From sequence record NZ_CP015284.1: a stretch of DNA of 64,000 bases; one strand, given 5' to 3'. The position numbers and the translations under genes are program-made. The DNA comes from a plasmid. This document shows, in pieces, positions 12,181-56,238 of this stretch. The notes beneath the pieces were generated by a model, which worked only from the letters and a program-made list of their open reading frames with translations, ran no database searches and was not told the DNA's origin. Every line of letters starts with the position of its first letter. Position 1 is the first letter of the stretch.

Positions 12181-13085
12181 TTAAGTCTAGTGTACCAGCT
12201 TACAGGCAAGATATTTGTTTAGAACAAAATAAAAACTAGGGGGGAACCCTAGTTAGCAGTAGACGTTCATACAAGAGTATTATGTAAATAAGAATGTTAG
12301 AGTGAAGTCTCTATGATAGAAGCTAATTAGAGACAAAGGGAAGATTAATTCATAGTTTGATGTATGTGTCTACTACTGAGATTATAACAGTGCGGTTAGA
12401 ATTTTTCAACAAGTTTTGTTAAAAGTCAAATTCTCAACTTAGGTAAGATAACATTTCAGATTAAGCTAAAAATTTTTTGAGACAAGTAAAATTGTAATTA
12501 GGGATGCCTCAAAGCTGTTCATATTTAGTAATTTAACAGCATTTTAGATTCTGATGATGAATTGATAATTAAATTTAAGTGGCTAAATAATTACTATGCA
12601 TATGAGAAAATAATATAATTAGATTGTATGACGATTGTCATTTAGATTATATTGTGCTATATTACTTCTTAGATAGTTTATCTATGTATCATCTCCCAAG
12701 GTAGATGGGTAAACTGTGGAATATTAATGCAGAAAAACGCAGGAGTTACTCTTGCGTGCATTAGGGAGGGATGTCGATTGTTTCTTGGTGAACAATTTTA
12801 TTGAGCAAGTTGTGAATAACAACGATACTTAAATATTTAAAATAATTTCTTGAAGGATGAAAAATAACCTAATAGAAGAATATTTTGTCATAGTTGAAAG
12901 TTTATTTGAAAATAAAAAACAGCTCTTTTCACAATGGAAGGAGCCAGACTTTTATAGATAGCTTTTATTATATGGATTTGATATACTCTTATATGTAGAA
13001 AAGTGATAGACGGTGGCTTTCAATTATTAGAGAGGAGTGATGCCTATGGGCAAACATTCAAAATCTAGTAGAGAGGAGAGCCGTT

Positions 13086-13190
13086 TTGACAGCGTTCGAG
13101 ATTGTGCAAACCATTCTAGGCTTTGGTAGTTTTACTATCGCTCTAATTGGATTATGCTACAAACTCTTTAAAGACGATGACAAAAAATAA
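13086..13190 (+). CDS. putative holin-like toxin (34 aa, (M)TAFEIVQTILGFGSFTIALIGLCYKLFKDDDKK) with a TTG start
   Basis: RBS AGGAGA 5 nt upstream. It has a single TM helix and a charged C-terminal tail, typical of the small 'holin-like toxin' family of Firmicutes. The ORF track missed it. Confidence 0.5.
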   Translation: MTAFEIVQTILGFGSFTIALIGLCYKLFKDDDKK

Positions 13191-13268
13191 TCCGTCCCCA
13201 CTTTTGGCGAAGTAAGACGGATTATTTTCGTTTAAAACTAGCCACCGTCTTTTAAACGGCTCTACATG

Positions 13269-13299
13269 GAAGTTGAGTGACTGCTCAACTTCTTTTTTT
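13269..13299 (+). terminator. rho-independent terminator (GAAGTTGAG-N6-CTCAACTTC followed by T7)
   Basis: Read directly from the sequence, downstream of the small toxin ORF. Confidence 0.6.
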
Positions 13300-13621
13300 C
13301 TACCACAATTTTATCAGAATAAACAATTTAAGTCAATTCGAAATATACAGATATTGATAAACTGACAGTACCAATGATAAATGAGTATATAGAAAAAGTA
13401 GTAGTCCATGAAGCAACAGGGGGAAGAAAAGGAAAAGATAGAAAACAACAAGTCGATGTTTACTTTAATTTTATAGGCAACTGTCAAGTGCTATGAAAAG
13501 CGAGCATAGAAAAAATGACTTAAAAATGGTAAAATATTATTAGTTAATTTAGACTAACTTGCAATTAGCTTTCATCTTTAAGGAATAATGTGAAATGCTA
13601 AAAGCGGAGAGAGTTTAAAAT

Positions 13622-20561: not shown

Positions 20562-21972
20562 TCTTTGTCAACTGTAGTGGGTGACGAAAAGCTAACATCT
20601 AGAGAGGACCTGATAGGTCTTCTCTTTTTTTATGTTCAGAGTGATTAAGATCCGCTTCCTAAAGTTGATGAAGTTTCTAAAACCAAATCCTAGACGTTTG
20701 ATGTCTTTGATCAACTTGTTAGTCGCTTCAAGTTTTGCATTTGAATAGTCCGTTTCTAGTGCGTTTTTGATGTATTGCTTGTGTCTAAGAAAAGTCCTAA
20801 AGACAGTTTGAAAATAATGATTAACCTTGCTCCTATTTTCCTCTATCAGCTCAAAGAACTCAGCTACTCTCTTCTCCTGAAAATGAAAAAGTAAGATCTG
20901 ATAAAGTGTATAGTAGTCGGTAAGCTCTTCTGAAAAGTCTAGTGTTTTCCCAACAACTTCATGTGGACTTAAGGTTTGGTGGAATGTCTTTGAATAAAAA
21001 GAGTTGAGAGATAACTTACGGCTGTCCTTTTGGAAGAGTCGCCAATGATTTTTCAAGGCTCGATAGGGTAGTGACTTCTTATCGAACTGGTTCATAATCG
21101 CAATTCTTGTCTTTAAAAAGGCACGACCAAGGTGCTGGATAATGTGGAAACGATCAAGAACGATTTTAGCGTTTGGAAAAAGTCTTTTGGCAAGTGGAAT
21201 ATAAGCTCCAGACATATCCATCGTGATAAACTGCACCTGTTGGCGAGCTTTTAATGGATACTTTAAAAAGTAGTTTCGTATAGAGGTTTGGCGACGATTA
21301 TCAAGGATGGTTATGAGTTCGTTTGTCTCATAATTCTGCGCCACAAAAGCCAATTCCCCTTTCTTGAACCCAAACTCATCCCAGGACATAACAGCTGGAA
21401 GTTTGTCATAATGTTCTTTGAAAGTGAACTGGTCAAGCTTACGATAGACAGTGGACGTCGACACACGAAGTCTTCTGGCAATATCAGTTAGTGAGACCTT
21501 CTCAGTTAGGAGTTGTGCAACCTTTTGTCGGACTAGATTGGAGATTTGGCAGTTTTTCTCAACGATTGATGTCTCAGCTACCGTGACTCGTCTACAACTT
21601 TTACACTGAAAGCGACGTTTCTTCAGACGTAGTAGTGTTGGAGTTCCCGTTTGCTCGAGAAGAGGGATTTTAGAAGGCTTTTGAAAGTCATATTTGATCA
21701 TCTTTCCTTGGCAGTGAGGACATGATGGTGCAGGGTAATCAAGTTTTGCTTGAATCTCTATATGAGTGTCAGTTTCAAAAACAAGTGAAATCTTGATATT
21801 TTGGTCTTTAATTCCGATTAATTCTGTGGTATTCTTAATAAGTCTCATAAGTTCTTCCTAATGATGGTTTGGTCGCTTTTCATTATAGTTCTTATGGGAC
21901 TTTTTGTGTACACTTAAAAAGCTCTATAATCTCTACAGTGGTTTTACCCACTACAGAAATTATAGAGCCATA
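20562..21972 (-). mobile_element. complete ISL3-family insertion sequence (IS1193-like, ~1.41 kb)
   Basis: Terminal inverted repeats GGCTCTTTGTCAACTGTAGTGGGT (right) and GGCTCTATAATTTCTGTAGTGGGT (left) flank an intact transposase gene. Confidence 0.85.
20592..21848 (-). CDS. ISL3-family transposase (418 aa, intact)
   Basis: N-terminal zinc finger (CPHCQG...CKSCRR) and a DDE core. It is the full-length counterpart of the pseudogene at 5497..6712. Confidence 0.9.
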   Translation of the reverse strand: MRLIKNTTELIGIKDQNIKISLVFETDTHIEIQAKLDYPAPSCPHCQGKMIKYDFQKPSKIPLLEQTGTPTLLRLKKRRFQCKSCRRVTVAETSIVEKNCQISNLVRQKVAQLLTEKVSLTDIARRLRVSTSTVYRKLDQFTFKEHYDKLPAVMSWDEFGFKKGELAFVAQNYETNELITILDNRRQTSIRNYFLKYPLKARQQVQFITMDMSGAYIPLAKRLFPNAKIVLDRFHIIQHLGRAFLKTRIAIMNQFDKKSLPYRALKNHWRLFQKDSRKLSLNSFYSKTFHQTLSPHEVVGKTLDFSEELTDYYTLYQILLFHFQEKRVAEFFELIEENRSKVNHYFQTVFRTFLRHKQYIKNALETDYSNAKLEATNKLIKDIKRLGFGFRNFINFRKRILITLNIKKEKTYQVLSRC

Positions 21973-23449: not shown

Positions 23450-24835
23450 TTATGAACGTCTGTGACGCCCTTTATAAACGAAGCTTGTCAAACCAAGTCC
23501 TACCAAAACCATACCTAGCATACCAACTTTAGAGTTTGTATCTCCTGTTTTTGGTAAATCGTGACTTGTCAATTTTCCATCAGCTTCCGATTTAATTCCT
23601 GCATTACGTGTTTGTGTAAATGGAGAAGTGACAGAATTCATGGAATGAATGTTTTTTGAAGGCACTAGACTTGTAGCAGGTGTTGTGCTGACCGCAGGTG
23701 CTTCACTTGTAGCAGGTGTTGTGCTAACTGCAGGTGCTTCACTTGTAGCAGGTGTTGTGCTAACTGCAGGTGCTTCACTAGTAGCAGGTGTTGTGCTAAC
23801 CGCAGGTGCTTCACTTGTAGCAGGTGTTGTGCTGACCGCAGGTGCTTCACTTGTAGCAGGTGTTGTGCTAACTGCAGGTGCTTCACTTGTAGCAGGTGTT
23901 GTGCTAACTGCAGGTGCTTCACTAGTAGCAGGTGTTGTGCTAACTGCAGGTGCTTCACTAGTAGCAGGCGTTGTGCTGACTGCAGGTGCTTCACTTACTG
24001 AATTAGGGTTAGTTCTATAATAACGATAATATAGGGCATCATCCTCATAGTTGGCATGGCCAAATAACCCTGGTTCTTCCGTTGTGATAATATCTCCAAC
24101 CGAATACTTCTTACCATTAGATCCAGTAATTGTGTAGTATGGGTACCCTTCCAGCTCGTCACCTGGCATTACAGTATATCCTTTAGGGGTAACTACGTTA
24201 CCAGTGAGCCAGCTGATTGTAGGGTCATCTGATGCTGAATAATTAAGGTATAACATGCGATTAAGACTAGGATCGTTATCAGATATTGGATTTTCACTAG
24301 TAGCCGGCGTTGTGCTAACCGCAGGCGCCTCACTAGTAGCCGGCGTTGTGCTGTTCGCAGGTGCTTCACTTGTATTATCAGAGTTTAGAGGATAATAGTA
24401 GTAATATAGTCTATTATCTTCCTCGTTCTTGTGATTTACTAAAGGATCATTGACAGTTATAATATCGCCGACATTGTAATGTTTGCCGGTGTCATCGAAT
24501 ACGTCATAATGACTATATGTTCCAGGGTTACGAAAGTTCTCATCTACAACGTATGGTTCGCTAGGTTTAATAACCCGACCTGACATACTACCACTATCAG
24601 GTTTATCGGGATAATCTGCCGAATAAACATAGAACATACGCCAATCATTATAGTTAGCATCACTAGCTGTTTCTTCAGCATATACCTTTGTAGATGACTG
24701 ACCGAATTGAGTTTGCACAGCAGTTGCAAGAGTAATTGCTGCAACTAAAACAATTCCATATTTAGAAAACTTATTAATAGACAAAATAAACCTCCAGGGC
24801 AACATTATATAATTTTTAGAAATATAAATTATCAC
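23450..24835 (-). CDS. LPXTG cell-wall-anchored surface protein with a 12-aa tandem repeat region (SEAPAVSTTPAT x ~10)
   Basis: It has a signal peptide. The C-terminus has LPKTG, then a hydrophobic stretch and a KGRHRRS tail. Confidence 0.85.
   Translation of the reverse strand: MIIYISKNYIMLPWRFILSINKFSKYGIVLVAAITLATAVQTQFGQSSTKVYAEETASDANYNDWRMFYVYSADYPDKPDSGSMSGRVIKPSEPYVVDENFRNPGTYSHYDVFDDTGKHYNVGDIITVNDPLVNHKNEEDNRLYYYYYPLNSDNTSEAPANSTTPATSEAPAVSTTPATSENPISDNDPSLNRMLYLNYSASDDPTISWLTGNVVTPKGYTVMPGDELEGYPYYTITGSNGKKYSVGDIITTEEPGLFGHANYEDDALYYRYYRTNPNSVSEAPAVSTTPATSEAPAVSTTPATSEAPAVSTTPATSEAPAVSTTPATSEAPAVSTTPATSEAPAVSTTPATSEAPAVSTTPATSEAPAVSTTPATSEAPAVSTTPATSLVPSKNIHSMNSVTSPFTQTRNAGIKSEADGKLTSHDLPKTGDTNSKVGMLGMVLVGLGLTSFVYKGRHRRS
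23665..24000. repeat. 36-bp tandem repeat array (~9-10 copies) inside the LPXTG gene; 2 further copies at ~24290-24360
   Basis: The unit GCAGGTGTTGTGCTAACTGCAGGTGCTTCACTTGTA repeats near-perfectly on the plus strand. Confidence 0.9.
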
Positions 24836-28055: not shown

Positions 28056-28465
28056 TCTCCAAAAATCAAGTCTTCAGTATCCCAGATAGTTAACAGGGAC
28101 TTCCTATTAAGTATTCTGTTTTTATTATACTTAAATATTCTCATATTTTAAAGTAGTCTTTTGATTATTATTCAAGAAAATTACTAGAGTTGTGAAGTGA
28201 AGTGTTGCGCGTGGTATATGATTCAATACAAAAAGGATAGCATATAGTGATGCTATCCTCAGAATGATGAATTGTACCGTTTCCATCAACCTGTGGGGAA
28301 ACAATATACTTATGGTAAAGGGATGAAACAGTTATCCGAAGTAGAACAGTTACGTTTGCAGGTAGAATTACTAAAAAAGTATCAGAGCTTGGTAAGAGAA
28401 TCTAAAAAGTAAGTCTTATAATCTCGTCGTTCTACAACCCTTATGCTTTGACCCTAATCAATTGA

Positions 28466-31210
28466 TTAGTTTTTCTTACGTTTGCGACCAGCAAATCCAA
28501 GAAGGCCAAGAAGACCAATACCTGCAACACTTGCAATAATACCGCCATTATCACCTGTTTCTGGAAGTGTGTGACCATGTCCGGCTTTAACAGCTACTGC
28601 GGTAGCTTCTGCTACAGTGTTGACTGTTTGTTCTTGTGTCTTGTTGAATTTAGATACTGATACTGGTGCTGCTTCGACTTGACTGCTTACCACTTTCGGT
28701 GCCACAACATCGTCATATTTAGCTTTTGCACCTTGATTTGGTTTTACAACGTCAGTTTCTGGCTTAGTATTGTCAGTTTTACCAGATTCAGGTTTAGTAT
28801 CAGGTGTCACAATATTACCTTTTTTAGCGTCATCTAACGCTTTTTGAACTTCATATTTAGTCAACACGGTTTCATATTCTGATTTAGCTGATGCATATTT
28901 GCTACGAGCGTCTGTAAGTTTAGCTTGTTCAGCGGCAAGTTTAGCTTGAGCGTTGACAAGTTTAACTTGAGCGGCTGCAAGTTTAACTTGAGCGGCTGCA
29001 AGTTTAGCTTGTGCATTTTCCAACTCAGATTTATGAGCTTTAGCAGCTTCTACTGCAGATTTTGCGTTGTTAAGAGCTTTTTGAGCAGCAACAACATCAT
29101 TGTTTGCTTTTTCAGCCGATGATTTAAGATCTGCTAATTTAGCTTGTTCAGTTGCAAGTGCAACCATTGCATCATCAGCTTTTTCTTTTGCAACTTTAGC
29201 ATCTTCTTTTGCTTGTGCAAGCGCTTGGGCTTTAGTTGCTTCTTCAGCTGTTACGGATGCAAGCACAACTTTAGCCACTGCAAGTTTACCTTCAGCTTCT
29301 GTTAACTTAGCTTGAGCAGCTCTCAATTCAGCTTCTGCTTTTGGTGTTTGACGTTCACGTGATTCAAGCTCTGCTACTTTTGCTTTGGCGTCATCGACAG
29401 CCTTTTGAGCCGTTGTGACTGCTGTTTTGGCTACGGTAACATCTTCTTGAGCAGCTTTCAACGCAACACCTGCAGTTGTTTGTTTCAATACTACTTTATT
29501 GTATGCATCTACACTTGGCTCAAAGTTTGCTCGACCGGCTGACAATACATCATATACATGACCACCCCAAATGTCTTGTGCAAATTTAGCTTCATGCAAG
29601 CTTGAAGTTGTAGTTACAACATTGAATTCTGCTGGAACTTCAATAAACGAATTACTGTTGTCTTGTAGGTACATTGAAATACCTTGTTGGTCGTAGTCCG
29701 TCAAACTAGCTGTATGACTATAATAATTTGTCCCATCATCCACTGTGAATAAAAATACAGCTTCACGAACACCCTCTAGAATTTCGCTTAATGTTGCATA
29801 ATGAGATCGTTTGTATGCCAAATCACCTGAAAACGGTTTGAAGTGACGTTGATTTGTTAAGTTTTCTCTAACATACAAGTGCTCCAATTCGGGTTTTTTT
29901 GTTGAAAGCTCAATTGAGTAGTCAGATCCCGTTTCATCAGTGTTATCACGTAATGCGTTGTATTTCACCGCACGTGCTTTTGCAAGATCCATCATTAAAG
30001 TGTTTACTGTTGCATCTGGTAAACCTAGTGCACGACGAAAGGCATTAACTTGGTCTACAAAATATTGGTTTACAATATTGTTCACGTTTTCCGGGAGATT
30101 TTCGACATCATATTGAGTATTATCAGCTACTGTGATTGTGTCTGGATAAAAGTAATTACAAATCCCATTATCGTTTGCGTCGTAATGGATATCACCATCA
30201 TAAACATGTACGATTTTATTATATTGGTTAATGATGTTGAAATCTGTTTTGATTGGAAGCGCGTTATAAATTGCAAGAGCTTCATCAGCTGCTTTCACAC
30301 GGTCTTCACCTTTAGCATTCACCCATTTCTTCAATGCATTCAAGTATTCTTCTGGAATATTGACTTTTGATTCCCATGTCGCTAATGGCTTGACAGCGTC
30401 TGCAGCCGCTTTTGCTTGGTCAAAGGCTGTTTGTGCTTGACTTACGACAGTTTCTTTAGCTGTTACAGTTTGTTTTGCATCTTTAACACCTTGTTCAGCT
30501 GTTGATACGGAACCGTTTGCATCTGAAATTGCTTGGTCAAGTTTTGAATCTGCCTTTTTAGCTGTTTCAAGGTTTGTTTCAGCTGTTTTCACATCTGATT
30601 TAGCTCGTACTACAGTTGCTTCTGCCACTGTTACATTATCTTGAGCTGTTGATACATCTGTTGATTCTTTTGCAAGAGCATCTACTTTTGCTTGAGCAGC
30701 GTCACTTTTAGCTTGTGCCTTATCTGCAGCCGCTTGAGCGTCTGATACAACAGCTTTTTGGTTTGTCACAGTCGTTTGAGCGTTTGTAGCGGTAGCTTGT
30801 GCGTCAGTTACTGCCTTTTCTGCAACAGGTACGTGACTGTCAGCTGTTGTGATCGCATTAGTAGCTTGAGCAATGGCTTCAGGTGTCGCTTGTGCTGCTG
30901 TTGCTTGTGCGTCAGTCACTTGACTTTGAGCAGCATTCACTTGATTTTGAGCGTCATTTACTTGATTTTGAGCCAAACCAGTTGCTGATTCTTGAATAAC
31001 AGCGGCTGTTTCAGCTTTTTCCATATTTTGTTTCGCATCTGATACTTGTTGTTCAGTAACGGTTGATTGAGCTTGTGTTTCAGATACAGCATTTGTGTCT
31101 GGTGTAGTTACTGTTACTTCATCAGCATTTACAACACCTGTTGCACAAGCCGCAGCTACAATTGCAGCAGTACCAGCGATAAATTTCATTTTGTTGTTTG
31201 TTTCTTTCAT
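28466..31210 (-). CDS. LPXTG-anchored, Ala-rich coiled-coil surface protein (PrgA/Sec10 surface-exclusion-like layout, 914 aa)
   Basis: Signal peptide and a C-terminal LPETG sorting signal. The AQAKLAAAQVKLAAAQVKL heptad repeats come from 21-bp DNA repeats at ~28960-29030. A central globular domain is flanked by coiled coils. Confidence 0.6.
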   Translation of the reverse strand: MKETNNKMKFIAGTAAIVAAACATGVVNADEVTVTTPDTNAVSETQAQSTVTEQQVSDAKQNMEKAETAAVIQESATGLAQNQVNDAQNQVNAAQSQVTDAQATAAQATPEAIAQATNAITTADSHVPVAEKAVTDAQATATNAQTTVTNQKAVVSDAQAAADKAQAKSDAAQAKVDALAKESTDVSTAQDNVTVAEATVVRAKSDVKTAETNLETAKKADSKLDQAISDANGSVSTAEQGVKDAKQTVTAKETVVSQAQTAFDQAKAAADAVKPLATWESKVNIPEEYLNALKKWVNAKGEDRVKAADEALAIYNALPIKTDFNIINQYNKIVHVYDGDIHYDANDNGICNYFYPDTITVADNTQYDVENLPENVNNIVNQYFVDQVNAFRRALGLPDATVNTLMMDLAKARAVKYNALRDNTDETGSDYSIELSTKKPELEHLYVRENLTNQRHFKPFSGDLAYKRSHYATLSEILEGVREAVFLFTVDDGTNYYSHTASLTDYDQQGISMYLQDNSNSFIEVPAEFNVVTTTSSLHEAKFAQDIWGGHVYDVLSAGRANFEPSVDAYNKVVLKQTTAGVALKAAQEDVTVAKTAVTTAQKAVDDAKAKVAELESRERQTPKAEAELRAAQAKLTEAEGKLAVAKVVLASVTAEEATKAQALAQAKEDAKVAKEKADDAMVALATEQAKLADLKSSAEKANNDVVAAQKALNNAKSAVEAAKAHKSELENAQAKLAAAQVKLAAAQVKLVNAQAKLAAEQAKLTDARSKYASAKSEYETVLTKYEVQKALDDAKKGNIVTPDTKPESGKTDNTKPETDVVKPNQGAKAKYDDVVAPKVVSSQVEAAPVSVSKFNKTQEQTVNTVAEATAVAVKAGHGHTLPETGDNGGIIASVAGIGLLGLLGFAGRKRKKN

Positions 31211-31240
31211 AAGTGTTATCCCTCAATAAAATAATTTGTT

Positions 31241-31275
31241 TTCAAAAATAATAAGGGGTTCCGAGGTTTAACCCC
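31241..31275 (-). terminator. terminator-like GC hairpin plus U-run inside the ~125-nt 5' leader of the PrgA-like gene (candidate attenuator)
   Basis: In the minus-strand RNA, GGGGUUAAACCUCGGAACCCC is followed by UUAUUAUUUUU. It lies ~35 nt upstream of the start codon. Confidence 0.4.
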
Positions 31276-31341
31276 GTATTCGCGCCCGCATAGGCTGGCG
31301 TGAAATTAACCCTGGATGAATAATTATTTACAACTATTAGA

Positions 31342-31370
31342 ATTTTACTCCCGAAATTTAAGGGTGTCAA
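31342..31370 (-). promoter_or_regulatory. sigma-70-type promoter on the minus strand (-35 TTGACA, 17-nt spacer, -10 TAAAAT) driving the PrgA-like gene
   Basis: Read on the reverse complement of 31342..31370. Confidence 0.5.
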
Positions 31371-32188
31371 GTATTTTTTGAAAATTTAAACCATTATTTC
31401 GAGTTAATAAATTCTTTTAAAATAAGGTTTTTCAATATATTCTAGAATTATTATTATCATTTAATTATTATTAAGATTAGATTGATAATTAAAAAATTAC
31501 TGTTTTTACACAATTTAAAAAAAGCGTAAAACCATTACAATTGCAGTGAAAATGCTAATATATGCTCGTTTTATTTTCCTTTAATTTTTTGAGGATGCAG
31601 AAAGCTAAACCTTCACATATTCATCAAGATTTCTAATTTATTTTTTCTTAAAAGCATCCAAATAATTCTACTCTTTAAAAATAAAATTTTTATAAATAAC
31701 GGTATATTTTTCCCTAAATATTGAAAAATACTCCCCATAAAAGAAATTATCAATACAATTTATTTCACAATACATAAATACGACACACAAACTCAATATC
31801 ATTTTATAAAGTAACTCCAAACTTTTAGAAAAGAAGCTCATAATATTCACACAAAATACTTAAACTCATCAAAAAAAGCCGGACCTCAGTCCAGCTCAGA
31901 ATGAAGAAAAACATCAAAAACGATGTTTGTCTTTTTTTTATAGTCACACTTAATTCTCCCATAATCCAATAATATTGAGGTATTATGTGAAGCCCATCAA
32001 GCGTATAGAAACCTAATTGACGACGATTATATTCAAGATTATCTTTGTGAAACATAGGAGTACCTCATCAAATACTTTTTTTATTATACTCCTTCGAAGC
32101 AAGAAAACTCCCCAGATAACTTCTGAGGACTTTATCTTCATTCTGAGGATAGCATCACTATATATGCTATCCTTAGCTAGTCCTATGA

Positions 32189-32758
32189 TTATTGTGCAGG
32201 TCTCAAGGTTGCTGCTACTGTTCTGATAGAACTTTGTGTAAGTTCATCATGTCGTTCTTCATCTGTGATTACACGAGGTTTTGGAAAGTTCTCGATAGGC
32301 TTTTCATGTTCTTGGGCTTGCTTTTTAGCTTGTTCAAGTCGTTGGTGTTGAGCTTCTGGTCCCCAGTCTTTTTCTGCAGCAATCTCAGAGACCATAAAGG
32401 CACTATATCGATATGCCTCTGGAACAATCTTCTGGATTTGTTCTTTCGTGAAGCGGTCTCCCTCACTATAATCAACGACATCCCAAATTAGTCCGCCATT
32501 GCCATCTTCTTGTGCTGCAAGGAAATGTTCACATCCAATAGGATTTGATAGGTTGATCATAAAGAGTTCTTCAGACCATTCTCCAGTCATTACAGCATCA
32601 ATAAATGTTTTATATTCATCGTCCGAGGCAAAATTTAGACGCCCGTTCTTTTCAGCTTTTTGAGCTTCACATAATACCTCAAAGCGTTCTTGGTATAGAG
32701 AGAAATTGTACTGTTTCAAAAAACTTGCTTGTTCCGTTGTTAAAATATTTTTCTTCAT
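32189..32758 (-). CDS. hypothetical cytoplasmic protein (189 aa)
   Basis: ORF followed by a terminator-like hairpin at ~31868-31900. No family recognised. Confidence 0.45.
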   Translation of the reverse strand: MKKNILTTEQASFLKQYNFSLYQERFEVLCEAQKAEKNGRLNFASDDEYKTFIDAVMTGEWSEELFMINLSNPIGCEHFLAAQEDGNGGLIWDVVDYSEGDRFTKEQIQKIVPEAYRYSAFMVSEIAAEKDWGPEAQHQRLEQAKKQAQEHEKPIENFPKPRVITDEERHDELTQSSIRTVAATLRPAQ

Positions 32759-42450: not shown

Positions 42451-45231
42451 ATGAACACTAGAGAACAGAAAAAGCAAGCCAAGGCTTTTATTAAGCGTTG
42501 GGAAAACCGTGGTAGCGAAAGACAAGATAGCCAATCTTTCTGGCTAGACCTACTGCAATCTGTTTATGGGATTGAAAACCCAACAGAATATATTAGTTTT
42601 GAAAATAAAGTAGCGTTGGATCACACTAGCTTCATTGATGGTTTCATCGACAAAACAAAGGTTATGATTGAACAAAAAGGGGCAAACAAAGACCTCAATA
42701 AAGCTATTAGACAGTCTGATGGTACTTATCTTACACCTTTCCAACAAGCGAAACGTTATTCAGCTAACGTCCCCTACTCTAGACGTCCTAGATGGATTAT
42801 TACTTGTAATTTCAAAGAGTTCTATATCTATGATATGGAGCAGCCTAATGGCGAACCTAAAGTTGTTCAATTAGCAGACCTTGATAAAGAAGCCTATCGA
42901 CTAGAATTTCTCGTAGATAAGACCAACGAACACCTAGAACGTGAAATGAAAGTCTCAATGGAGGCTGGGGAAATCGTAGGCGAAATCTATGACGGATTGC
43001 TAAAACAATATGTCAATCCAGACAATCCAGATAGTCTACATGCGATTAACCAACTTGTCGTACGCCTTGTATTTTGTTTGTATGCAGAGGATGCTGGTAT
43101 CTTTGGACACAAAATGATGTTCCATGACTACCTAGCTCGTTTTGGAAGTCGTGACTTTCGTCGTGGGTTAATGGACCTTTTCTCTGTCCTTGACACACCA
43201 ATCGACACGCGCGACCCCTACCTTGATAGCGAACTAAACGCCTTCCCTTATGTAAACGGTGGGATGTTTGCAGAGAATAATCTAGAAATACCTAATTTCA
43301 CCGATGAACTCCGAGAGCTTATACTTGAACACGCTTCTTCTGGCTTTGACTGGTCAGAAATCAGTCCAACTATCTTTGGTGCAGTGTTTGAATCAACTCT
43401 TAACCCAGAAACACGTCGAAGTGGTGGGATGCATTATACTTCGATTGAAAACATCCATAAAGTTATTGATCCGTTATTCTTGGACGAGCTAAAAGAAGAG
43501 TTAAATGAAATACGTCAATTTAAGCAACCTAAAACGGTTGAACAAAAAGCAAAACAGTTTCAATCAAAACTAGCGAGTCTTCTTTTCTTCGACCCAGCTT
43601 GTGGTTCTGGAAATTTCTTAACTGAAACATACGTCTCTCTTAGACGCTTAGAAAATGAAGCTATTAAGCTATATATGGGTGATACCGTTGCTTTGGATCT
43701 CGGTCAAGATTTAGTCAAAGTAAAGCTGAAGCAATTCTATGGTATTGAGATTAATGACTTTGCAGTTTCTGTAGCCAAAACAGCTCTCTGGATTGCAGAA
43801 AGCCAAATGCTTGAAGAGACTAAAGATATTGTATTTGCAAATATCGACTTCCTTCCACTTAAGTCATATACCAATATCGTTGAAGGAAATGCTTTAGAGC
43901 TGGATTGGGAAAGTGTAGTTCCCAAAGAAAAGCTAAACTATATCATTGGGAATCCACCGTTTGTCGGAGCTAATGGTGTCAGTAAATCCCAGAAACAAGA
44001 ATTAATAAACTTGTTTGGCGAAAAGAGTAATGCAGGAATTTTAGATTACGTAGGAGGATGGTATGCTAAATCCGCAATATTAATTAACGATACAAATATT
44101 AGGTGTGCATTTGTATCAACTAATTCCATTTCTCAAGGTGAGCAAGTTTCTGTTTTATGGGACTTCCTATTAAAGAAAAATATTTCTATAGATTTTGCGT
44201 ATAAAACTTTTGTATGGAATAGTGAGGCAAAAGAGAAAGCAAAAGTCCACTGTATTATTATTGGATTTAGCTCAGTGAAACAGAGTAAGTTAATCCTTTT
44301 TGATAAGGACAACAAAGAAATTGTCGAAGCAATTAGTCCATATCTAATTGAAGGAAAAATGATCTATGTAAGGAGAAGAAACAAGCCTATATCCCAAAAG
44401 TTACAAATGTCTAGAGGTAATCAACCAACTGATGGCGGGAATTTAATAATTAAAGCTGAAGAGTATGATAGTTTTATCAAATCTGAACCAACAGCAAAAA
44501 AATATATAAAAAAATTAATCGGTTCTAGGGAGTTCATTAACAGTTTAGATAGATATTGTTTATGGCTTGTAGGAGTTTCCCCAAAAGAGTTACGTTCTAT
44601 GCCTAAAGTCTTAGAACGTGTAAATTTGGTTAAAGAAATGAGACTAAACAGTTCGGCTTTGGGGACTAGAAAATTAGCGGAGAGGTCTCATGAATTTAGA
44701 GAAACTAAAAATCCAAATACATATCTAATTATTCCAAGAGTTTCATCAGAGAGTAGACGGTACATTCCAATTGGTTTTTTAGACTCTGATACTATTCCTA
44801 CAGATTCAGTAACAATTATTGAAGATGCTTCTCTTTACGACTTCGGTATTTTAACTTCAAATGTACATATGGCATGGATGCGTACAGTTGCTGGACGCCT
44901 TAAATCAGATTATCGCTACTCTGCCAAAATCGTATACAATAACTTCCCTTGGCCTGAAGTAACAGATGCCCAAAAAGAGAAAATATCAAAAACTGCTCAA
45001 GCAATTCTTGATGCGCGTGCACTTTATCCAGACAGTTCATTAGCTGATCTCTATGATGAGCTAACCATGCCTAAAGAACTTCGTCGAGCCCACCAAGCTA
45101 ATGATAAAGCAGTTATGGAAGCATATGGATTAACCAAAATAGTCGATGGCAAAAAAACTTGGCTAACTGAGAGTGAGACAGTCGCAAGACTATTTGAGTT
45201 ATATGAGCAGATTACAAACAGCAAATCATAG
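42451..45231 (+). CDS. MmeI-family type IIL restriction-modification enzyme (fused PD-(D/E)xK nuclease, gamma-class N6-adenine methyltransferase and target-recognition domain)
   Basis: 926 aa. The N-terminus has D-x-FID...EQK (a PD-ExK-like motif). The middle has FFDPACGSGNFL (SAM motif I) and IIGNPPFVGA (NPPF motif IV). The size and domain order match MmeI-like enzymes. Confidence 0.75.
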   Translation: MNTREQKKQAKAFIKRWENRGSERQDSQSFWLDLLQSVYGIENPTEYISFENKVALDHTSFIDGFIDKTKVMIEQKGANKDLNKAIRQSDGTYLTPFQQAKRYSANVPYSRRPRWIITCNFKEFYIYDMEQPNGEPKVVQLADLDKEAYRLEFLVDKTNEHLEREMKVSMEAGEIVGEIYDGLLKQYVNPDNPDSLHAINQLVVRLVFCLYAEDAGIFGHKMMFHDYLARFGSRDFRRGLMDLFSVLDTPIDTRDPYLDSELNAFPYVNGGMFAENNLEIPNFTDELRELILEHASSGFDWSEISPTIFGAVFESTLNPETRRSGGMHYTSIENIHKVIDPLFLDELKEELNEIRQFKQPKTVEQKAKQFQSKLASLLFFDPACGSGNFLTETYVSLRRLENEAIKLYMGDTVALDLGQDLVKVKLKQFYGIEINDFAVSVAKTALWIAESQMLEETKDIVFANIDFLPLKSYTNIVEGNALELDWESVVPKEKLNYIIGNPPFVGANGVSKSQKQELINLFGEKSNAGILDYVGGWYAKSAILINDTNIRCAFVSTNSISQGEQVSVLWDFLLKKNISIDFAYKTFVWNSEAKEKAKVHCIIIGFSSVKQSKLILFDKDNKEIVEAISPYLIEGKMIYVRRRNKPISQKLQMSRGNQPTDGGNLIIKAEEYDSFIKSEPTAKKYIKKLIGSREFINSLDRYCLWLVGVSPKELRSMPKVLERVNLVKEMRLNSSALGTRKLAERSHEFRETKNPNTYLIIPRVSSESRRYIPIGFLDSDTIPTDSVTIIEDASLYDFGILTSNVHMAWMRTVAGRLKSDYRYSAKIVYNNFPWPEVTDAQKEKISKTAQAILDARALYPDSSLADLYDELTMPKELRRAHQANDKAVMEAYGLTKIVDGKKTWLTESETVARLFELYEQITNSKS

Positions 45232-47055: not shown

Positions 47056-49107
47056 TTATTCTTTAGATGGTGCTCCACCTTTTTGTGTCTTAGGATCAAT
47101 CACCATACCAACTTGTGGTTGGGTATCTCCTAAAATAATTGATGCTGGACTCAAGAAATCACCATACTGGAAGACTTTCGTTTTCCGACGTTCAAAGTGA
47201 ATGTGTGGTCCAGTAGCTGCACCTGTTTGTCCAACATATCCGATAAGTTGGCCTTTTTTGACCTTATCCCCTTTCTTAACAAGAGGAACATCACGCATAT
47301 GTCCATAATAAATAATAGTGCCATCTGGAAGAGTGTGCATCACGTGGTTACCGTCGATATTCATCGCCTCTTCATTGACCTCTACTACTTCACCGTCTGT
47401 TACGGCATAAATTGGAGAGCCTTCTGGTGCTGCAAGGTCCATTCCTGTGTGTCCTGAACCCGCATTTGGTCCACCTGCATTAGCTGCTGCACCGAAAAGT
47501 TGGGTAATGGTATAAGGAACATCGAGTGGCTGACCAGTATCAGTGCTGAGATTACTACTATCGCTGTCGCCACACGTATCTGCATCTACTTCCTCCTTGT
47601 CATCATCCTTATCCTTCTTGTCTTTCGGACGATAGACATAGACTTTTCCGTAGTCCATAGTAATACGGTCTCGATATTGGCCATAATTATTCTCAGCAAT
47701 CCCGTCGGTTGATGGAGAACATTGGATAATATTCTCCTTATCCTCAACTAGCATGGTCTGTCCTTTATCGCCAGAGCTACTACCTTTCGTACCCCAGATA
47801 ATGACATCTCCTTTTTCACGGTTTTGAACATCATCTTTAGATGACCAGGCACCCTCATACACCAATTCATAACCATTGTCTTTCAACCAGTCGTGTTCTG
47901 AATCGGTATCTACTGGAGATCCAGATTCTTTAGCACCACCGTCAACAAGGGCATAATAGAGAGCAGATGAATGGTCATAGCTATCTGGCCCAGTACGAGC
48001 ATCACGAGAATACTTGACCTTCCCTAGCTTATCCTTATACCACTTGATAGCTTTGTCAGTATCAATAGTCTTTTTATCCTTATCGCTGTCTTTTTTGCTA
48101 GCCTTGTTGCTAGAGTCACTTGATGAACTGCTTGAACTGCTATCATTATCATCGTCTTCGTTGTCGCTATCTTCTTCATCGTCGTCACCGTCATCATCAT
48201 CTGAACTTTGACTACTTGACGAGGAGTTATTGGAAGAAGCACCGCCACCACCAAACGCCTTTTGGAACTTGGCATCATCGTACTTATATTTACTTGCTTC
48301 GAAGACTTCCGCAAACTTCCTTGCATCCGCCTTCTTCTGGTCTGGTTTGACATAAGCCATATTACCTCGTTCGTAGGCATTCCATGACATAGCAGTTTCA
48401 TCGATATTGGTTTGTTTCGCAAACTCCTGGAATGACCAGTTATGGCCAGATTCGTCATAAGCTGGGTTCCAGTCACCTTTTGAGATGGCATCGATAACAA
48501 AGGCAACCATCTTATCAGCATCTTCCCAATCAGGACTATTAAGAGGTGCATATTTCGTGTAGGGGTCAAACTGGAAGATTCCACCACCACCAAGTGTGTT
48601 AGATGTCCCACCTGTCGTTGGAACAGCTCCCTTAGAAATGGAGTCATTGATACCACCACCATAATGCCCTTGGGCACGTCCAATGATGTCATAGCTCCCT
48701 TCAGAGTTTGCCCAACCAACAGCACCTGCAGCAGATTCCCCAGACAATCCAGCATTCACAAAAGCCATAAAGACTTTGTGGGCATTTTCATAGGCTTTTG
48801 TCCCCTTCGTAAAGGGATCAGAGTCGCCAGCAGATGCTGAGTCAGTTTTAGTAGAAGTCGATTGAGGCTTAGAGCCATCATCGTCTTCTTCATCATCGTC
48901 TTCTTCATCGCCATCTTTTTGGTAGGTTACACATTGGGCGTTAGTCTTGCTACCTTTCCCACCGGAAGTACTAATTGTCCCCATTAAACCAGTGATAATT
49001 GCAATTAAGATAACCGCAAAAGTTAAAATAGTTCCTATAATAATGGTTGTCTTCACTCCAAAAATCGTTAGAAGAACACGAGCAGCCTTATCACCTATTC
49101 GTTTCAA
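47056..49107 (-). CDS. conjugation cell-wall hydrolase (VirB1-like role): N-terminal TM, acidic low-complexity linkers, a central putative glycosidase-like domain and a C-terminal M23 peptidase domain
   Basis: M23/LytM motifs HTGMDLAA...GPHIHFE. The D/E/S-rich tracts are obvious. The central-domain assignment is inferred. Confidence 0.75.
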   Translation of the reverse strand: MKRIGDKAARVLLTIFGVKTTIIIGTILTFAVILIAIITGLMGTISTSGGKGSKTNAQCVTYQKDGDEEDDDEEDDDGSKPQSTSTKTDSASAGDSDPFTKGTKAYENAHKVFMAFVNAGLSGESAAGAVGWANSEGSYDIIGRAQGHYGGGINDSISKGAVPTTGGTSNTLGGGGIFQFDPYTKYAPLNSPDWEDADKMVAFVIDAISKGDWNPAYDESGHNWSFQEFAKQTNIDETAMSWNAYERGNMAYVKPDQKKADARKFAEVFEASKYKYDDAKFQKAFGGGGASSNNSSSSSQSSDDDDGDDDEEDSDNEDDDNDSSSSSSSSDSSNKASKKDSDKDKKTIDTDKAIKWYKDKLGKVKYSRDARTGPDSYDHSSALYYALVDGGAKESGSPVDTDSEHDWLKDNGYELVYEGAWSSKDDVQNREKGDVIIWGTKGSSSGDKGQTMLVEDKENIIQCSPSTDGIAENNYGQYRDRITMDYGKVYVYRPKDKKDKDDDKEEVDADTCGDSDSSNLSTDTGQPLDVPYTITQLFGAAANAGGPNAGSGHTGMDLAAPEGSPIYAVTDGEVVEVNEEAMNIDGNHVMHTLPDGTIIYYGHMRDVPLVKKGDKVKKGQLIGYVGQTGAATGPHIHFERRKTKVFQYGDFLSPASIILGDTQPQVGMVIDPKTQKGGAPSKE

Positions 49108-49124
49108 ATATCTTAGTCACCCCC

Positions 49125-49547
49125 TTAATGAAGTAGTGCGGTTAGCCAATACCAACCAAATACAAGTAAAAGTCCTAGGGCAAGAAAGATACTTTGTTTA
49201 ATGAATTTTCGATTTCGTTTTTGTTGTTGCTTTCGCATCCAAAATGAATCTTCATCTGAGTAATAGTCTTTGTGACGTTCCACTTGCAAATTATAATAGT
49301 CTGTCACATCCTCCTTGACACTGGATAACCTTTCTTTCCCACGCGCAATGAGACCTTGTTTTTTCTCTTGTTCACGTGCGATACTATCCTCACCAAAACC
49401 GTCATAGTAGGTATCGTAAAACGCTGAATAATCTACTTGCTCTTCGAGGCTTTCCGGATAGACTTGGTCTTGATGCTCATCAAGAGGATCTAGCTCTAGT
49501 TCACGCTGAATATACTGACCATCTCGTTTAAAACGATAAGATACCAT
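49125..49547 (-). CDS. small protein with a C-terminal TM anchor (140 aa)
   Basis: ORF in the T4SS operon. Confidence 0.4.
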   Translation of the reverse strand: MVSYRFKRDGQYIQRELELDPLDEHQDQVYPESLEEQVDYSAFYDTYYDGFGEDSIAREQEKKQGLIARGKERLSSVKEDVTDYYNLQVERHKDYYSDEDSFWMRKQQQKRNRKFIKQSIFLALGLLLVFGWYWLTALLH

Positions 49548-49550
49548 ATA

Positions 49551-50249
49551 TTAAAACCTCCTTAAGCCAATAATAGGCATTTTTTGTGGAGCAATATAGA
49601 GTTTATCTGTTACTGTTACCTTAGAAAAAGGTACACCTTTGATTTTGAAAGTACGGTGTAACTCCTTAACAACGAGACCAACTTTATAATCTTTTTCCGT
49701 CACTTCTTCCTTAAAGAGTTCTTCATAAGCTGACACCTGAATCAAGTCTAGGAGACGATAAGCAGATTGATAAGCATAATAGTTACTTCGATTGGCTAAT
49801 CTCTTTTCAAAAAGAGGTGAATATTCCTTTGAGAAGAATGATACGATCTTAACAGCTCGTTTTCTATGGTTATATTCTAGTTTAGCCATAACCCATGCAA
49901 GCCCCCAAGTCACTAACGTGATAAAGCCCCAGGTGTTCATCAAACAAATAGGAAGAAGACTAAACATAAGGATACGCTTTGCTTTCTTGATACGTTCACG
50001 TCTCTTACCAGCAAGTAGCTGATAAAGGGCTACAATCAAGGCACAAAACACATATGATGTATAGGCAATAGCCATAAAATGAACACCGTAGGCGAATAAA
50101 AGTGTCTGATAGAGCATGAGATAGCTATAGAAACCAACCAAACCAAGAACTAAACTGATAATAAAGGAGACTATCCTAAAAAAACGTAGTGTCTTAATGT
50201 CATAAGCAATATTGTTAACCCATAGTGACATTTGCATTAGTGTGGTCAT
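49551..50249 (-). CDS. polytopic membrane protein (232 aa)
   Basis: 4-5 hydrophobic helices. Confidence 0.45.
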   Translation of the reverse strand: MTTLMQMSLWVNNIAYDIKTLRFFRIVSFIISLVLGLVGFYSYLMLYQTLLFAYGVHFMAIAYTSYVFCALIVALYQLLAGKRRERIKKAKRILMFSLLPICLMNTWGFITLVTWGLAWVMAKLEYNHRKRAVKIVSFFSKEYSPLFEKRLANRSNYYAYQSAYRLLDLIQVSAYEELFKEEVTEKDYKVGLVVKELHRTFKIKGVPFSKVTVTDKLYIAPQKMPIIGLRRF

Positions 50250-50252
50250 TAT

Positions 50253-50579
50253 TTAATTTTCCTCCTCTGGTTCTTCTTCTGATTCAAATATTCTCGACTC
50301 AAATCGAGCAGGTTCTTGGTAGATAATCATGGCTGAGTACTCATCCACTTGCTGACTTCCAAATAAGCCACATAAACTACTTAAAAGATGTGTTTTTCGC
50401 ATCTGATAAGTAATATCAACAACACGACAGGTCTTTTTGTAAGCCAAGATCTCTAAGTAATCATTTACAATTCTTTCCAAATCATGCGGATTATCCTTTG
50501 TCAGAATTTTAGTTTGCAGTTGGAATGCCTCACCAGAATATGGTTGTTGTAGGTTCATTGTATTTCCCCCTTTCACCAT
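50253..50579 (-). CDS. small acidic cytoplasmic protein (108 aa)
   Basis: ORF tightly packed in the operon. Confidence 0.4.
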   Translation of the reverse strand: MVKGGNTMNLQQPYSGEAFQLQTKILTKDNPHDLERIVNDYLEILAYKKTCRVVDITYQMRKTHLLSSLCGLFGSQQVDEYSAMIIYQEPARFESRIFESEEEPEEEN

Positions 50580-50581
50580 TT

Positions 50582-52543
50582 CTAAGGTAAGAATGCATAG
50601 CGAACATGTTCATCATACGGATACTTACCATAAGACCTATTATCCGCTAGTTGATGGTTGAAGACTAAGTTCTTGACAGAAGCAATATTTAGGAAGAAAT
50701 CACCATCTCTTAAATATTTAAGTGAGGAAAGCTCACTCTCGGTCATTTCCCCTTGTAAAGCATCCGCTAGACGAGGGATAGTCAAATCACCTAATTGAGA
50801 AAAGACACGATACGTCATCATAGAGAAAATCGCACGTGTCGCTAAAACGTAGTCCACTGCGTCCGTAGAGTTTGCATTCAAGAGGATGTTATCTAACGAA
50901 CTCATTTCCATAATAAATGCGGAATAGTTACTACTTACATTCTCAATCAAATCCTTTAGAAAGTTAAGAGACTCTGAATAACGATAATTGAAGAGCTTAT
51001 GTGCTCCGTTAATGGTAATAATGCTATGAGGTCGCTGGCTCTTATCTCCCCCGATAATCCCTCTACGGAAATACTCAGATACCCTTCTACCATTTGCTAC
51101 AGCGTATGATGAAATGATAGATAACACTTGGTAAAGCTGAATATTAAGAAGTTCAGTATCTTGAATCCCAGAGAGGTCAAAGGTTACAACTTGTTCATTT
51201 GAGAAATCTTCAAACTGTGAGGTCGCATTTAAGAAGCGATAATCCCCCAAGAGACCAGAGAAAGCATTATAGAGACGGTCATAACTTGCAGCATCAATTT
51301 CATTCCCCTCTGCGATTTTGTCCTCTTTAAGCTTGTTTAAGCGTTCTACCCAATGAGATAGAGTCGGATAATCTTCTGGAATAACATTCGTAATCGTTAA
51401 GTCTTCTTGGTCCATGACTTCTGCATTACGGTTCCACAGACTACGGTCTTCATAAAAGTCGTTTAAAGCAGACGACAAATTATTGAGGTCAGAATTCTTT
51501 AACCCTGGATCAAGAATTTGAGCCAAAGCACGTAGTTTATTACGGTGGGCATAGAAAGATTGAACCTGGTCCGTTGTTTCTCCATCTGCAGAGGAAGCCG
51601 TCGCAATAATTTGCATGAGGTTAATATGATTTCGATTATTAGTACCAGACATCTTAACATATCGACCACCTTGAAGTTCCGTAAGTTCTTTTAAGTTACC
51701 AGTAAGGTCAATGTTAAAAATGGTATGGCCTTTAGCAAAATAGGTATCAATCAAATTACCTAACAGTTTCATTTTCCCGTTTCCTGCTCCGGCAATCAGC
51801 ATTGATGGAATTTTACGTTCCCTATCTTCATGCAAAAGGTCAAAGTTAACCACACCACCAGTACGTGTTTCTCCCAAGTAAACACCATAGGTATCCATTA
51901 AGTTCGTATGATTAAAAGGATAGCCAGCACCTAAATCCCAGACGGATGCTGCTTGCCCTTTTCGACGTAGTGGGGTGTCTTCCAAACGAGAAGCGGGGAT
52001 AAAGGCTGTATGATATTCGACATCTTGCATGCCATCTGAAGAAGAGATAGAATACTGATTCAACTGTTGCTTGAGGTCAGCTTCTCGTTCTACCAGTTGC
52101 TCCAATGTGTTTGCAGCTAATAAAAAGCGGGTGTGAATTTTTTTAGAAGGAACATTATTACCAAGTTTTTCGCGATAGTCTAACAAAGAACTAATACGCA
52201 TCTTATCATCTGCATCTTGTGCAGCCTTTGTGTTTTGCGTTGCTAACATATTAGAGATAGCTTTTGAGGCTAATTCTGACATTTCGCTATTTGAAGCATG
52301 TTCTAAAGACATAAAGCTGATAACATTATCAACAAGCATTAAATCGCTCATCCAGAAGTCAGGTAAACCGTGTTCTGGGTATCGGTCATATGGAACATGA
52401 GCAATCTTATAATAACCGTTTGCTTGTCTCCAATATCTATCATCATATTTAAAATCTGGAATATCACTTTGAATCCTACTAATAAGATTGAGGTCATAAC
52501 CCTCTCGAATATATTTCTTGATTTTTCGTGAACTTAAATCCAT
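50582..52543 (-). CDS. VirB4-like conjugation protein with degenerate ATPase motifs (653 aa)
   Basis: The P-loop-like segment is LIAGAGNGKM, with Met after Lys instead of Ser/Thr. The position expected for Walker B (hhhDEaH) reads IITINGAHKLF. The assignment rests on architecture and operon context. Confidence 0.4.
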   Translation of the reverse strand: MDLSSRKIKKYIREGYDLNLISRIQSDIPDFKYDDRYWRQANGYYKIAHVPYDRYPEHGLPDFWMSDLMLVDNVISFMSLEHASNSEMSELASKAISNMLATQNTKAAQDADDKMRISSLLDYREKLGNNVPSKKIHTRFLLAANTLEQLVEREADLKQQLNQYSISSSDGMQDVEYHTAFIPASRLEDTPLRRKGQAASVWDLGAGYPFNHTNLMDTYGVYLGETRTGGVVNFDLLHEDRERKIPSMLIAGAGNGKMKLLGNLIDTYFAKGHTIFNIDLTGNLKELTELQGGRYVKMSGTNNRNHINLMQIIATASSADGETTDQVQSFYAHRNKLRALAQILDPGLKNSDLNNLSSALNDFYEDRSLWNRNAEVMDQEDLTITNVIPEDYPTLSHWVERLNKLKEDKIAEGNEIDAASYDRLYNAFSGLLGDYRFLNATSQFEDFSNEQVVTFDLSGIQDTELLNIQLYQVLSIISSYAVANGRRVSEYFRRGIIGGDKSQRPHSIITINGAHKLFNYRYSESLNFLKDLIENVSSNYSAFIMEMSSLDNILLNANSTDAVDYVLATRAIFSMMTYRVFSQLGDLTIPRLADALQGEMTESELSSLKYLRDGDFFLNIASVKNLVFNHQLADNRSYGKYPYDEHVRYAFLP

Positions 52544-52554
52544 GTAAACTCCTT

Positions 52555-53463: not shown

Positions 53464-53599
53464 CTATTAGCTACTCATACTTCTCCATGATTTTGACTAT
53501 TTACTTCTATTTAGGGCTCTCTGTCCTTGTCTAGCTACTTAAAAACTGTTACAATCAAATAAATACAAACGCAATAATCTTTTTTAGGAGGGTTTTAGG

Positions 53600-53962
53600 A
53601 TGCTAGACTTTTTACAAGATTTTTATTTTTCACTTTATATAAGCACTTGGACCTCGTTTAAATGGTTACTTTTTTCAGTACTGATTGGTATCGCTTGCTT
53701 CTTGCTTACGCTTCTTTTTTCTACGATAAGTGAGGCGGCAGAAACGATTTGGTTTAAATTTTCTTTGTCTCTAACTGGAATATTTGCTCTGTTTTGTTTA
53801 TTCATGACACTTCATGGCATCATCCACTCAATAGGAATCCTAGTAGGTGCTGTTTCTAGTTTCTTTTTCCCAGTATTTGGCTTAATCATTATCTGTGGAA
53901 TTATCCTATTCATCATCAGTCTTTTTAATCCATTCTTCCTCTTCTTCTTAGTTAAGAAATAA
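53600..53962 (+). CDS. small polytopic membrane protein (120 aa), opposite orientation within the operon
   Basis: Three hydrophobic helices. The ORF is followed by a hairpin plus T-run at ~53966-53995. Confidence 0.35.
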   Translation: MLDFLQDFYFSLYISTWTSFKWLLFSVLIGIACFLLTLLFSTISEAAETIWFKFSLSLTGIFALFCLFMTLHGIIHSIGILVGAVSSFFFPVFGLIIICGIILFIISLFNPFFLFFLVKK

Positions 53963-54003
53963 AAAACAAGCCTTTAATATGGCTTGTTTTTTTTAGACTA
54001 TTA

Positions 54004-56235: not shown

Positions 56236-56238
56236 AGG

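Follow-up and report, generated by a model that had tools for sequence, protein, structure and literature searches.

A candidate leaky terminator in the leader of a prgA-like gene on a Streptococcus salivarius-type megaplasmid

Surface-exclusion genes of conjugative-type plasmids can be preceded by leaders in which transcription is attenuated. Does the leader of a prgA-like gene on a streptococcal megaplasmid contain such a terminator, and does it behave as a switch? The question arises from 64,000 nt of plasmid DNA (NZ_CP015284.1; hereafter the window), in which an original prediction had placed a consensus promoter and a terminator-like hairpin before a PrgA-like gene and likened them to the antisense-RNA control of pheromone plasmids. 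The window is ~95% identical to megaplasmids of Streptococcus salivarius, such as pSAL813. The gene and the structure that follows it are:

28466–31210, minus strand: SEC10/PrgA-type gene encoding 914 aa, with a signal peptide, a surface-exclusion domain and an LPXTG anchor
28260–28233, minus strand: 11-bp hairpin 3′ of the prgA-like gene, which is also one arm of a module-bounding inverted repeat

The predicted identity of the gene proved genuine. The protein belongs to the SEC10/PrgA family according to TIGR04320 (141 bits, 5e-41; cutoff 70), and it also scored over the cutoffs of TIGR01167 and PF00746 (Gram_pos_anchor). The annotation of pSAL813 gives the same SEC10/PrgA-type identity to its copy. 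The prgA-like gene is the distal member of a T4SS-like array. The other members, upstream on the same strand (33.7–57.5 kb), encode a TcpC-like protein, a TraG/VirB4-type P-loop ATPase, a cell-wall hydrolase, a topoisomerase and an SspB/PrgB-like adhesin. MOB typing found no relaxase, and related megaplasmids are called non-mobilizable. The hairpin at 28260–28233 is the probable 3′ end of a monocistronic prgA-like transcript. As the T4SS-like genes lie upstream and the prgA-like gene has its own promoter, described below, and its own 3′ hairpin, the leader serves the prgA-like gene only. A joint gating of surface and transfer genes by the leader, as had been suggested, is at odds with this arrangement, in which the T4SS-like and PrgB-like genes precede it.

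An MmeI-type restriction-modification fusion gene on the plus strand (42451–45231) interrupts the minus-strand T4SS-like array, of which the part at 47056–57453 (minus strand) encodes the hydrolase, the TraG/VirB4-type P-loop ATPase and the TcpC-like protein. An inverted repeat of ~40 nt, at 28233–28270 and 32135–32174, brackets the spacer, promoter, leader and prgA-like gene. Its arms are each a hairpin, GGATAGCAT...ATGCTATCC plus CTCAGAATGA, and one arm pair of 29 nt is 97% complementary. Similarity to other S. salivarius megaplasmids ends close to the upstream arm, and the same slot carries other cargo elsewhere: a DUF5677 gene with a gene for a hypothetical protein in pSsal-NU10, and a gene for a SIR2-family protein in strain ICDC2. 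The flanking hairpins look like the boundaries of an exchangeable cassette. Another variable slot lies at 23450–24835 (minus strand), where the window has a gene for an LPXTG-type surface protein (461 aa, about ten TSEAPAVSTTPA repeats in tandem) and pSAL813 has an 879-bp gene for a helix-turn-helix regulator adjoining xerS.

Transcription of the prgA-like gene appears to start from a site of its own. The elements found upstream of the gene are:

31370–31342, minus strand: candidate sigma-70-type promoter, with a −35 box TTGACA (31370–31365), a 17-nt spacer and a −10 box TAAAAT (31347–31342)
31338–31322, minus strand: imperfect palindrome AATAGTTGTAAATAATT, spanning the presumed +1
31897–31876, minus strand: strong intrinsic-terminator-like hairpin of 9 bp with a 4-nt loop and U7; the surrounding 60 nt fold with −16.5 kcal/mol

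The near-perfect promoter and the ~125-nt leader were thus located on the minus strand as originally described. The promoter matches the consensus at 11/12 positions and is the top promoter-like site in 28–34 kb; its hexamers have a spacing within 17 ± 1 nt and stand 125 nt 5′ of the ATG. Immediately 5′ of the −35 box, on the minus strand, is the A/T-rich tract AAATTTTCAAAAAATAC. Matches of at least 11/12 occur three times in the window, as compared with 3.95 ± 1.9 times in composition-preserving shuffles, so the hexamer match by itself is not beyond chance. What makes the promoter credible is its position before the gene and the retention of TTGACA in a homologue of 70% identity (locus L002). 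We infer a transcription start near A31335, which would give a leader of ~125 nt to the ATG at 31210. In three metagenomic copies (L014, L015 and L019), the −10 box reads TAAACT rather than TAAAAT, and the spacer of L019 is 18 nt long; natural alleles probably differ in promoter strength.

The palindrome over the presumed start could form a 5′-terminal stem-loop in the mRNA or act as an operator. One of its pairs occurs as G·U, G–C and A–U among the natural copies, and in variant L023 an A·A mismatch is mended to U–A. No second site of this kind was found elsewhere in the window, and a regulon search with the palindrome and promoter returned no further sites above chance.

The DNA 5′ of the promoter had been described as ~900 bp of AT-rich sequence with little coding capacity. 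In agreement with this, 818 bp (31371–32188) are non-coding, with a GC content of 13–38%, and this spacer varies at an approximately neutral rate. The terminator-like hairpin at 31897–31876 would insulate the prgA-like promoter from upstream transcription. Compared with pSAL813, the window contains an additional ~200 bp at ~31950–32146 (minus strand). This segment is flanked by an inverted CTCAGAATGAAGA motif (31895–31911 / 32131–32147) and includes a terminator-like hairpin (32129–32109) as well as the 5′ end of a 76-aa ORF crossing the terminator at 31897.

Between the promoter and the ATG, the leader combines a GC-rich island, a U-run and a Shine–Dalgarno (SD) region. Its parts are:

31312–31255, minus strand: GC-rich island, ~60% GC within DNA of 13–27% GC
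31312–31308 (GGGUU) with 31260–31256 (AACCC), minus strand: P1 of a predicted three-way junction
31304–31279, minus strand: P2 of the predicted junction
31276–31262, minus strand: P3 of the predicted junction (CGGGGU-UAA-ACCUCG)
31275–31270 (GGGGTT) with 31260–31255 (AACCCC), minus strand: hairpin of the original prediction, 6 bp with four G–C pairs and a 9-nt loop
31254–31244, minus strand: U-run UUAUUAUUUUU (DNA TTATTATTTTT), 9 T of 11, directly 3′ of the helix
31225–31220, minus strand: SD region UGAGGG (core GAGGG, 31224–31220), complementary to the C-run CCCUUA (31257–31252)

A GC hairpin and a U-run had been expected ~35 nt before the start codon. Both are present, and the U-run ends 33 nt from the ATG. 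The part of that proposal that stands is the helix next to the U-run; the part that does not is the named hairpin as the favoured fold. On its own, the GGGGUU/AACCCC hairpin has a stability of −7.1 kcal/mol, and it is mutually exclusive with both P1 and P3. It is predicted with a probability of 0.03 for the window copy and 0.00 for the common variants, and the highest value, 0.17, is that of L008. P1 reaches a predicted probability of 0.63–0.79 in transcripts that end at the U-run. This helix has three G–C pairs at its base, the last of them one nucleotide before the U-run, and contributes ~−4.5 kcal/mol. According to these predictions, the three-way junction is favoured and the hairpin is a minor conformer.

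The stability of the island depends on the allele. The window allele, which carries two weakening changes, folds with −23.1 kcal/mol (z = −1.5), and the common pSAL813-type island with −31.8 kcal/mol (z = −3.2), a value matched by only 1 of 200 shuffles. The fold of the whole leader is no better than that of shuffled sequences (z = −1.4). Within the island, AACCCC has three mutually exclusive predicted partners: P1, the original hairpin and the SD. The TTATT repeat that flanks the island is unremarkable for this DNA.

The island resembles no described RNA family in the searches performed. A search of the whole window with Rfam at gathering thresholds returned nothing at the leader locus; with Rfam 15 at permissive thresholds, the interval 30800–32600 gave only snoRNA and plastid models (20–28 bits vs gathering scores of 61–78; E ≥ 2). 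A tRNA-like or T-arm reading of CGGGGTTAAACCCCG was rejected as no tRNA was called. Neither a second copy nor a trans-encoded complement of the island was found in the window or in any of the compared loci, using a mismatch search and a covariance model. An origin as a dispersed repeat or MITE was rejected: the island is single-copy, and exact-pattern scans found 0 matches in 185,579 species-representative genomes and in viral contigs.

Elsewhere in the window, four Rfam matches exceeded the gathering score. The Streptococcus sRNA Srn266 is present in two copies on the plus strand (6724–6833 and 21860–21969), and rli28 (plus strand) adjoins RatA (minus strand) at 12972–13155 and 13220–13311. 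The rli28/RatA pair suggests a type I toxin-antitoxin-like locus.

The juxtaposition of helix and U-run is unusual in this DNA. Runs of 9 T in 11 occupy only 0.2–0.4% of minus-strand positions, the AT-rich spacer included. A perfect GC-rich 6-bp stem followed by at least 8 T in 11 was matched 11 times in the 128 kb of both strands, which corresponds to ~7 distinct sites, and about five of these are at gene ends, some of them bidirectional. The arrangement in the leader is strand-specific, as the plus strand has no T-run after the helix. By the usual description of an intrinsic terminator (stem of at least 5 bp, loop of 3–8 nt, U-tract), the leader has the stem and the U-tract, the loop is 9 nt, and the favoured fold provides a 5-bp junction-closing helix. 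The terminator scanner accepts loops of up to 8 nt and therefore did not report the site. The gene-end terminators of the window are simple stems of 8–12 bp, with 60-nt regions of −12 to −20 kcal/mol and an unbroken run of ~5–8 U; the stability of the leader helix is well below theirs, and its U-tract is interrupted. Since the combination of helix and U-run is rare and otherwise found at gene ends, a weak, leaky leader terminator is the best reading of it. If functional at all, such a terminator should be leaky. More broadly, the succession of a promoter, a structured leader and a helix with a U-run before a SEC10/PrgA gene makes a leader terminator or attenuator a reasonable hypothesis.

The C-run that ends the island could also act at the level of translation. 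In full-length leaders, its predicted probability of pairing with the SD is 0.79–0.97 in four of six variants; the value for the window copy is 0.32 and that for L008 is 0.08. In those four variants, the SD is unpaired with a probability of at most 0.2; for the final two SD bases of the window copy and L008, the probability of being unpaired is ~0.5–0.9. The masking fold also appears in the predicted minimum free energy structure of the leader. The pairing itself comprises 6 bp, including one G·U, and spans a 26-nt loop.

We then considered natural copies of the leader. Of the 24 copies in the set, 17 were retrieved by scanning metagenomes with the ribosome-binding site and start codon as anchor; the others are those of the window, of pSAL813 (L001) and of five more contigs. 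The 24 copies represent 11 distinct leaders with a mean column identity of 91%. The leader of pSAL813, the megaplasmid of S. salivarius LAB813, is 98% identical to that of the window. Among related megaplasmids, only two of eight have the leader, and close relatives of the prgA-like protein are absent from the species-representative genomes. GGGUU, GGGGUU, AACCCC, the U-run and the SD region are invariant across the 24 copies, and neighbouring positions vary. Within P3, both G–C and G·U occur, and one pair in P2 is seen as G–C, A·C or A–U. The common allele GGAGCG disrupts P2, an 8-nt duplication extends the P2–P3 junction in five loci, and one allele has a 5-nt duplication of TTATT inside the U-run. 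Covariation was not significant, the observed score being reached by 154 of 500 shuffles of the 11 sequences with their 91% mean column identity; there is one compensatory change, from G–C to A–U in P2, beside several disruptive P2 alleles. The only protein relative at 30–70% identity was P0009, too few for a proper covariation test. Substitutions affect 7 of 58 columns of the island; for comparison, the variable fraction is 0.07 at second and 0.21 at third codon positions of the gene and 0.16–0.20 in the AT-rich spacer. As the variability of the island falls between that of second and third codon positions, any constraint on it is mild at most.

The nearest homologue does without the island. 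P0009 (70% identity, locus L002) is preceded by a TTGACA/TATAAT promoter and a ~45-nt leader, with no GC island and no structure. A prgA-like gene therefore does not need the island, which, from these comparisons, we regard as specific to one narrow lineage of megaplasmids by gain (or loss). At L002 39–71 (Logan contig SRR10692657_545), TTGACA and TATAAT are 21 nt apart and the spacer contains a run of 12 G. This spacing is too long for an active promoter, so that slippage in the G-tract could give phase-variable expression; the tract was seen in a single contig, where an assembly or homopolymer artefact is possible.

Among distant prgA-like genes (≤30% identity), the leader architecture is not conserved. 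In relatives from the Mitis group (L025/L027 3530–4000), a divergent HTH_3 (XRE-type) gene lies 106–132 nt upstream. In Streptococcus suis (L026 3919–3975), the control region has the palindrome GCCTGCTATAC-TAG-TATAGCAGGGC over the −10 box and then, within the leader, a GC hairpin. These loci suggest that control by a repressor is the commoner solution among prgA-like genes.

We tentatively propose, as the most likely function of the leader, that a weak constitutive terminator or pause site damps a strong promoter, with possible added masking of the ribosome-binding site. In this model, a strong housekeeping-type promoter would drive a probably monocistronic mRNA for the PrgA/Sec10-type surface protein. 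The nascent island would fold as P2 and P3 closed by P1 or, less often, as the GGGGUU/AACCCC hairpin, and either fold would put a helix directly before UUAUUAUUUUU. Helix and U-run would together act as a weak, leaky terminator or pause, ending some transcripts at about +90 and lowering expression. In transcripts that read through, the C-run could re-pair with the SD and reduce translation further. The analysis shows the features, their predicted folds, their retention in the natural copies and the rarity of the helix–U-run arrangement; the transcription start, and termination or pausing with its efficiency, we infer. The geometry of promoter and leader, the U-run after the helix, the z of −3.2 for the common allele, the invariant helix segments and the terminator upstream all speak for this proposal. 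The weak helix, the branched and non-canonical structure, the non-significant covariation, the weakened window allele and the island-less 70% homologue speak against it. We favour a constitutive damper rather than a switch because there is no sign of a sensor, be it an antisense RNA, a peptide, a ligand or a protein.

Two other explanations compete with a leader terminator. The island may have no regulatory role, being a neutral lineage-specific insertion or remnant in which helix and U-run coincide because GC-rich DNA happens to sit within AT-rich DNA. We consider this rather unlikely. The near-neutral diversity, the tolerated indels of 8 and 5 nt, the frequent disruptive P2 alleles and the lack of an Rfam family and of an island in the nearest homologue are as a neutral insertion would have them, and so is the narrow spread: two of eight related megaplasmids have the leader, and neither species-representative genomes nor viral contigs yielded a match. 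Harder to reconcile with neutrality are the fold of the common allele (z = −3.2), the placement of a 9-in-11 U-run after the helix, with a positional probability of ~0.2–0.4%, and the invariance of the helix-forming segments and U-run in 24 of 24 copies. The other explanation, which is unlikely in our judgement, confines the leader to translational masking or mRNA stability: the C-run would pair with the SD, possibly as a temperature- or factor-sensitive throttle, the 5′ palindrome would be a protective stem-loop, and no termination would occur. The high pairing probabilities in four of six variants, the agreement of the masking fold with the minimum free energy structure and the G·U, G–C and A–U states of the palindrome pair are consistent with it. 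Yet the pairing is short, includes a G·U and bridges 26 nt, the whole-leader z is only −1.4, the window copy pairs with a probability of just 0.32, and the pairing segments lack the variation by which they might be compared. Masking also leaves the position of the U-run, directly after a helix, unexplained.

In a third explanation, a regulated attenuator or switch, a trans-acting RNA, protein or ligand would move the C-run between terminator and read-through folds and couple expression of the PrgA-like protein to a signal, as IRS1/Anti-Q does in pCF10. The mutually exclusive pairings of AACCCC, the compact three-way junction and the pCF10 precedent (PMC8265641) speak for the idea, but we hold it to be improbable. 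No partner came to light. The best plus-strand promoter-like sites near the leader, at 31206–31235 and 31429–31457, match at only 9/12 positions, which is the chance level (29 such matches found vs 19.4 ± 4.4 expected), so that no antisense promoter rises above chance. The only ATG ORF of the leader, of seven codons (ATG CGG GCG CGA ATA CGG GGT TAA), was rejected as a leader peptide as it has no SD; it exists only in the window allele, CTATG being CTACG in most copies. A 42-aa TTG ORF (31242–31370) was rejected since its start lies inside the −35 box. Within 31371–32188, the search for small peptide genes yielded only unsupported, non-conserved ORFs, one of them crossing the terminator, and for peptide ORFs and antisense promoters alike nothing convincing emerged from 31370–32189. 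Pfam and further domain searches of the neighbouring proteins found no HTH or other regulator domain and no PrgU-like domain. With chance-level antisense matches, no conserved small ORF and no adjacent regulator, control of the IRS1/Anti-Q type, as originally envisaged, finds no support here; nor does the window hold a complementary copy of the island. A small riboswitch, the other suggestion made for this leader, fares no better, given the lack of an Rfam match and of significant covariation and the natural duplications of 8 and 5 nt; the common 8-nt duplication at the junction in particular argues against a precise ligand-binding aptamer. An element acting in DNA, with the +1 or GC palindromes, or both, serving as an operator, a recombination site or an oriT-like site, seems to us highly improbable. 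A palindrome does cover the presumed +1, palindromes at the −10 or +1 recur in L002 and in S. suis L026, and distant relatives have divergent HTH_3 genes 106–132 nt upstream; against this, the window offers no adjacent regulator, no second operator copy and, by MOB typing, no relaxase, and the G·U-type changes seen in P3 and in the 5′ palindrome are in keeping with an RNA on the minus strand.

The megaplasmids of S. salivarius carry the bacteriocin loci of probiotic strains, and their transfer between strains has been reported (PMC3681767). Their transfer and surface genes are essentially unstudied, and we found no description in the literature of how their transfer is regulated. If the leader damps or gates the prgA-like gene, it would give a starting point for understanding how these plasmids set the amount of a protein by which redundant mating is limited. 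A strong promoter combined with a leaky terminator would, if that reading is correct, also be a compact natural part for streptococcal expression work. There is a slim chance that the 60-nt three-way junction represents a cis-regulatory RNA that is new and narrow in distribution, in which a plasmid- or host-encoded partner drives a switch between the U-run helix and the SD mask; it would then tie the output of the surface-exclusion protein to the transfer state of the megaplasmids. The general significance is modest, since only one allele of a single cassette gene carries this 5′ UTR element. Overall, the leader is plausibly an ordinary cis element of a familiar kind, as yet unproven.

Comparison with known systems places the leader near three of them. 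It shares with SD-sequestering 5′ UTRs, such as translational attenuators, a pyrimidine-rich segment, CCCUUA, that complements the SD (UGAGGG) and, by prediction, pairs with it in the full-length mRNA. It differs from these and from RNA thermometers in that the long-range pairing is short and without comparative support, and no thermometer motif or Rfam match was found. In common with generic Rho-independent or leaky leader terminators, it has a G–C-based helix directly before a U-rich tract, strand-specific and within a 5′ UTR; unlike them, it has a stem of 5–6 bp, a 9-nt loop or junction-closing helix, and an interrupted U-tract. In the third system, the prgQ leader of pCF10 from Enterococcus faecalis, prgA and the T4SS genes are preceded by two terminators of little strength, IRS1 and IRS2 (PMC8265641). 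There, the countertranscript Anti-Q promotes formation of IRS1, the promoter is under the control of PrgX and of peptides, and PrgU has the leader RNA as its target; the terminators yield short RNAs as well as read-through (PMC8265641). The pCF10 leader heads the whole prgQ operon, with its regulators, adhesins and T4SS, whereas the 125-nt leader described here precedes the prgA-like gene only. The pCF10 leader also has an inhibitor peptide gene, a convergent prgX/Anti-Q unit and control by PrgX, of which no equivalents were found here, and in a plasmid search the leader matched no enterococcal plasmid. The likeness, judged from described features, is one of arrangement: in both, a terminator-like structure lies in an untranslated leader, behind a strong promoter and before a prgA/sec10-type gene, on a Gram-positive plasmid of conjugative type.
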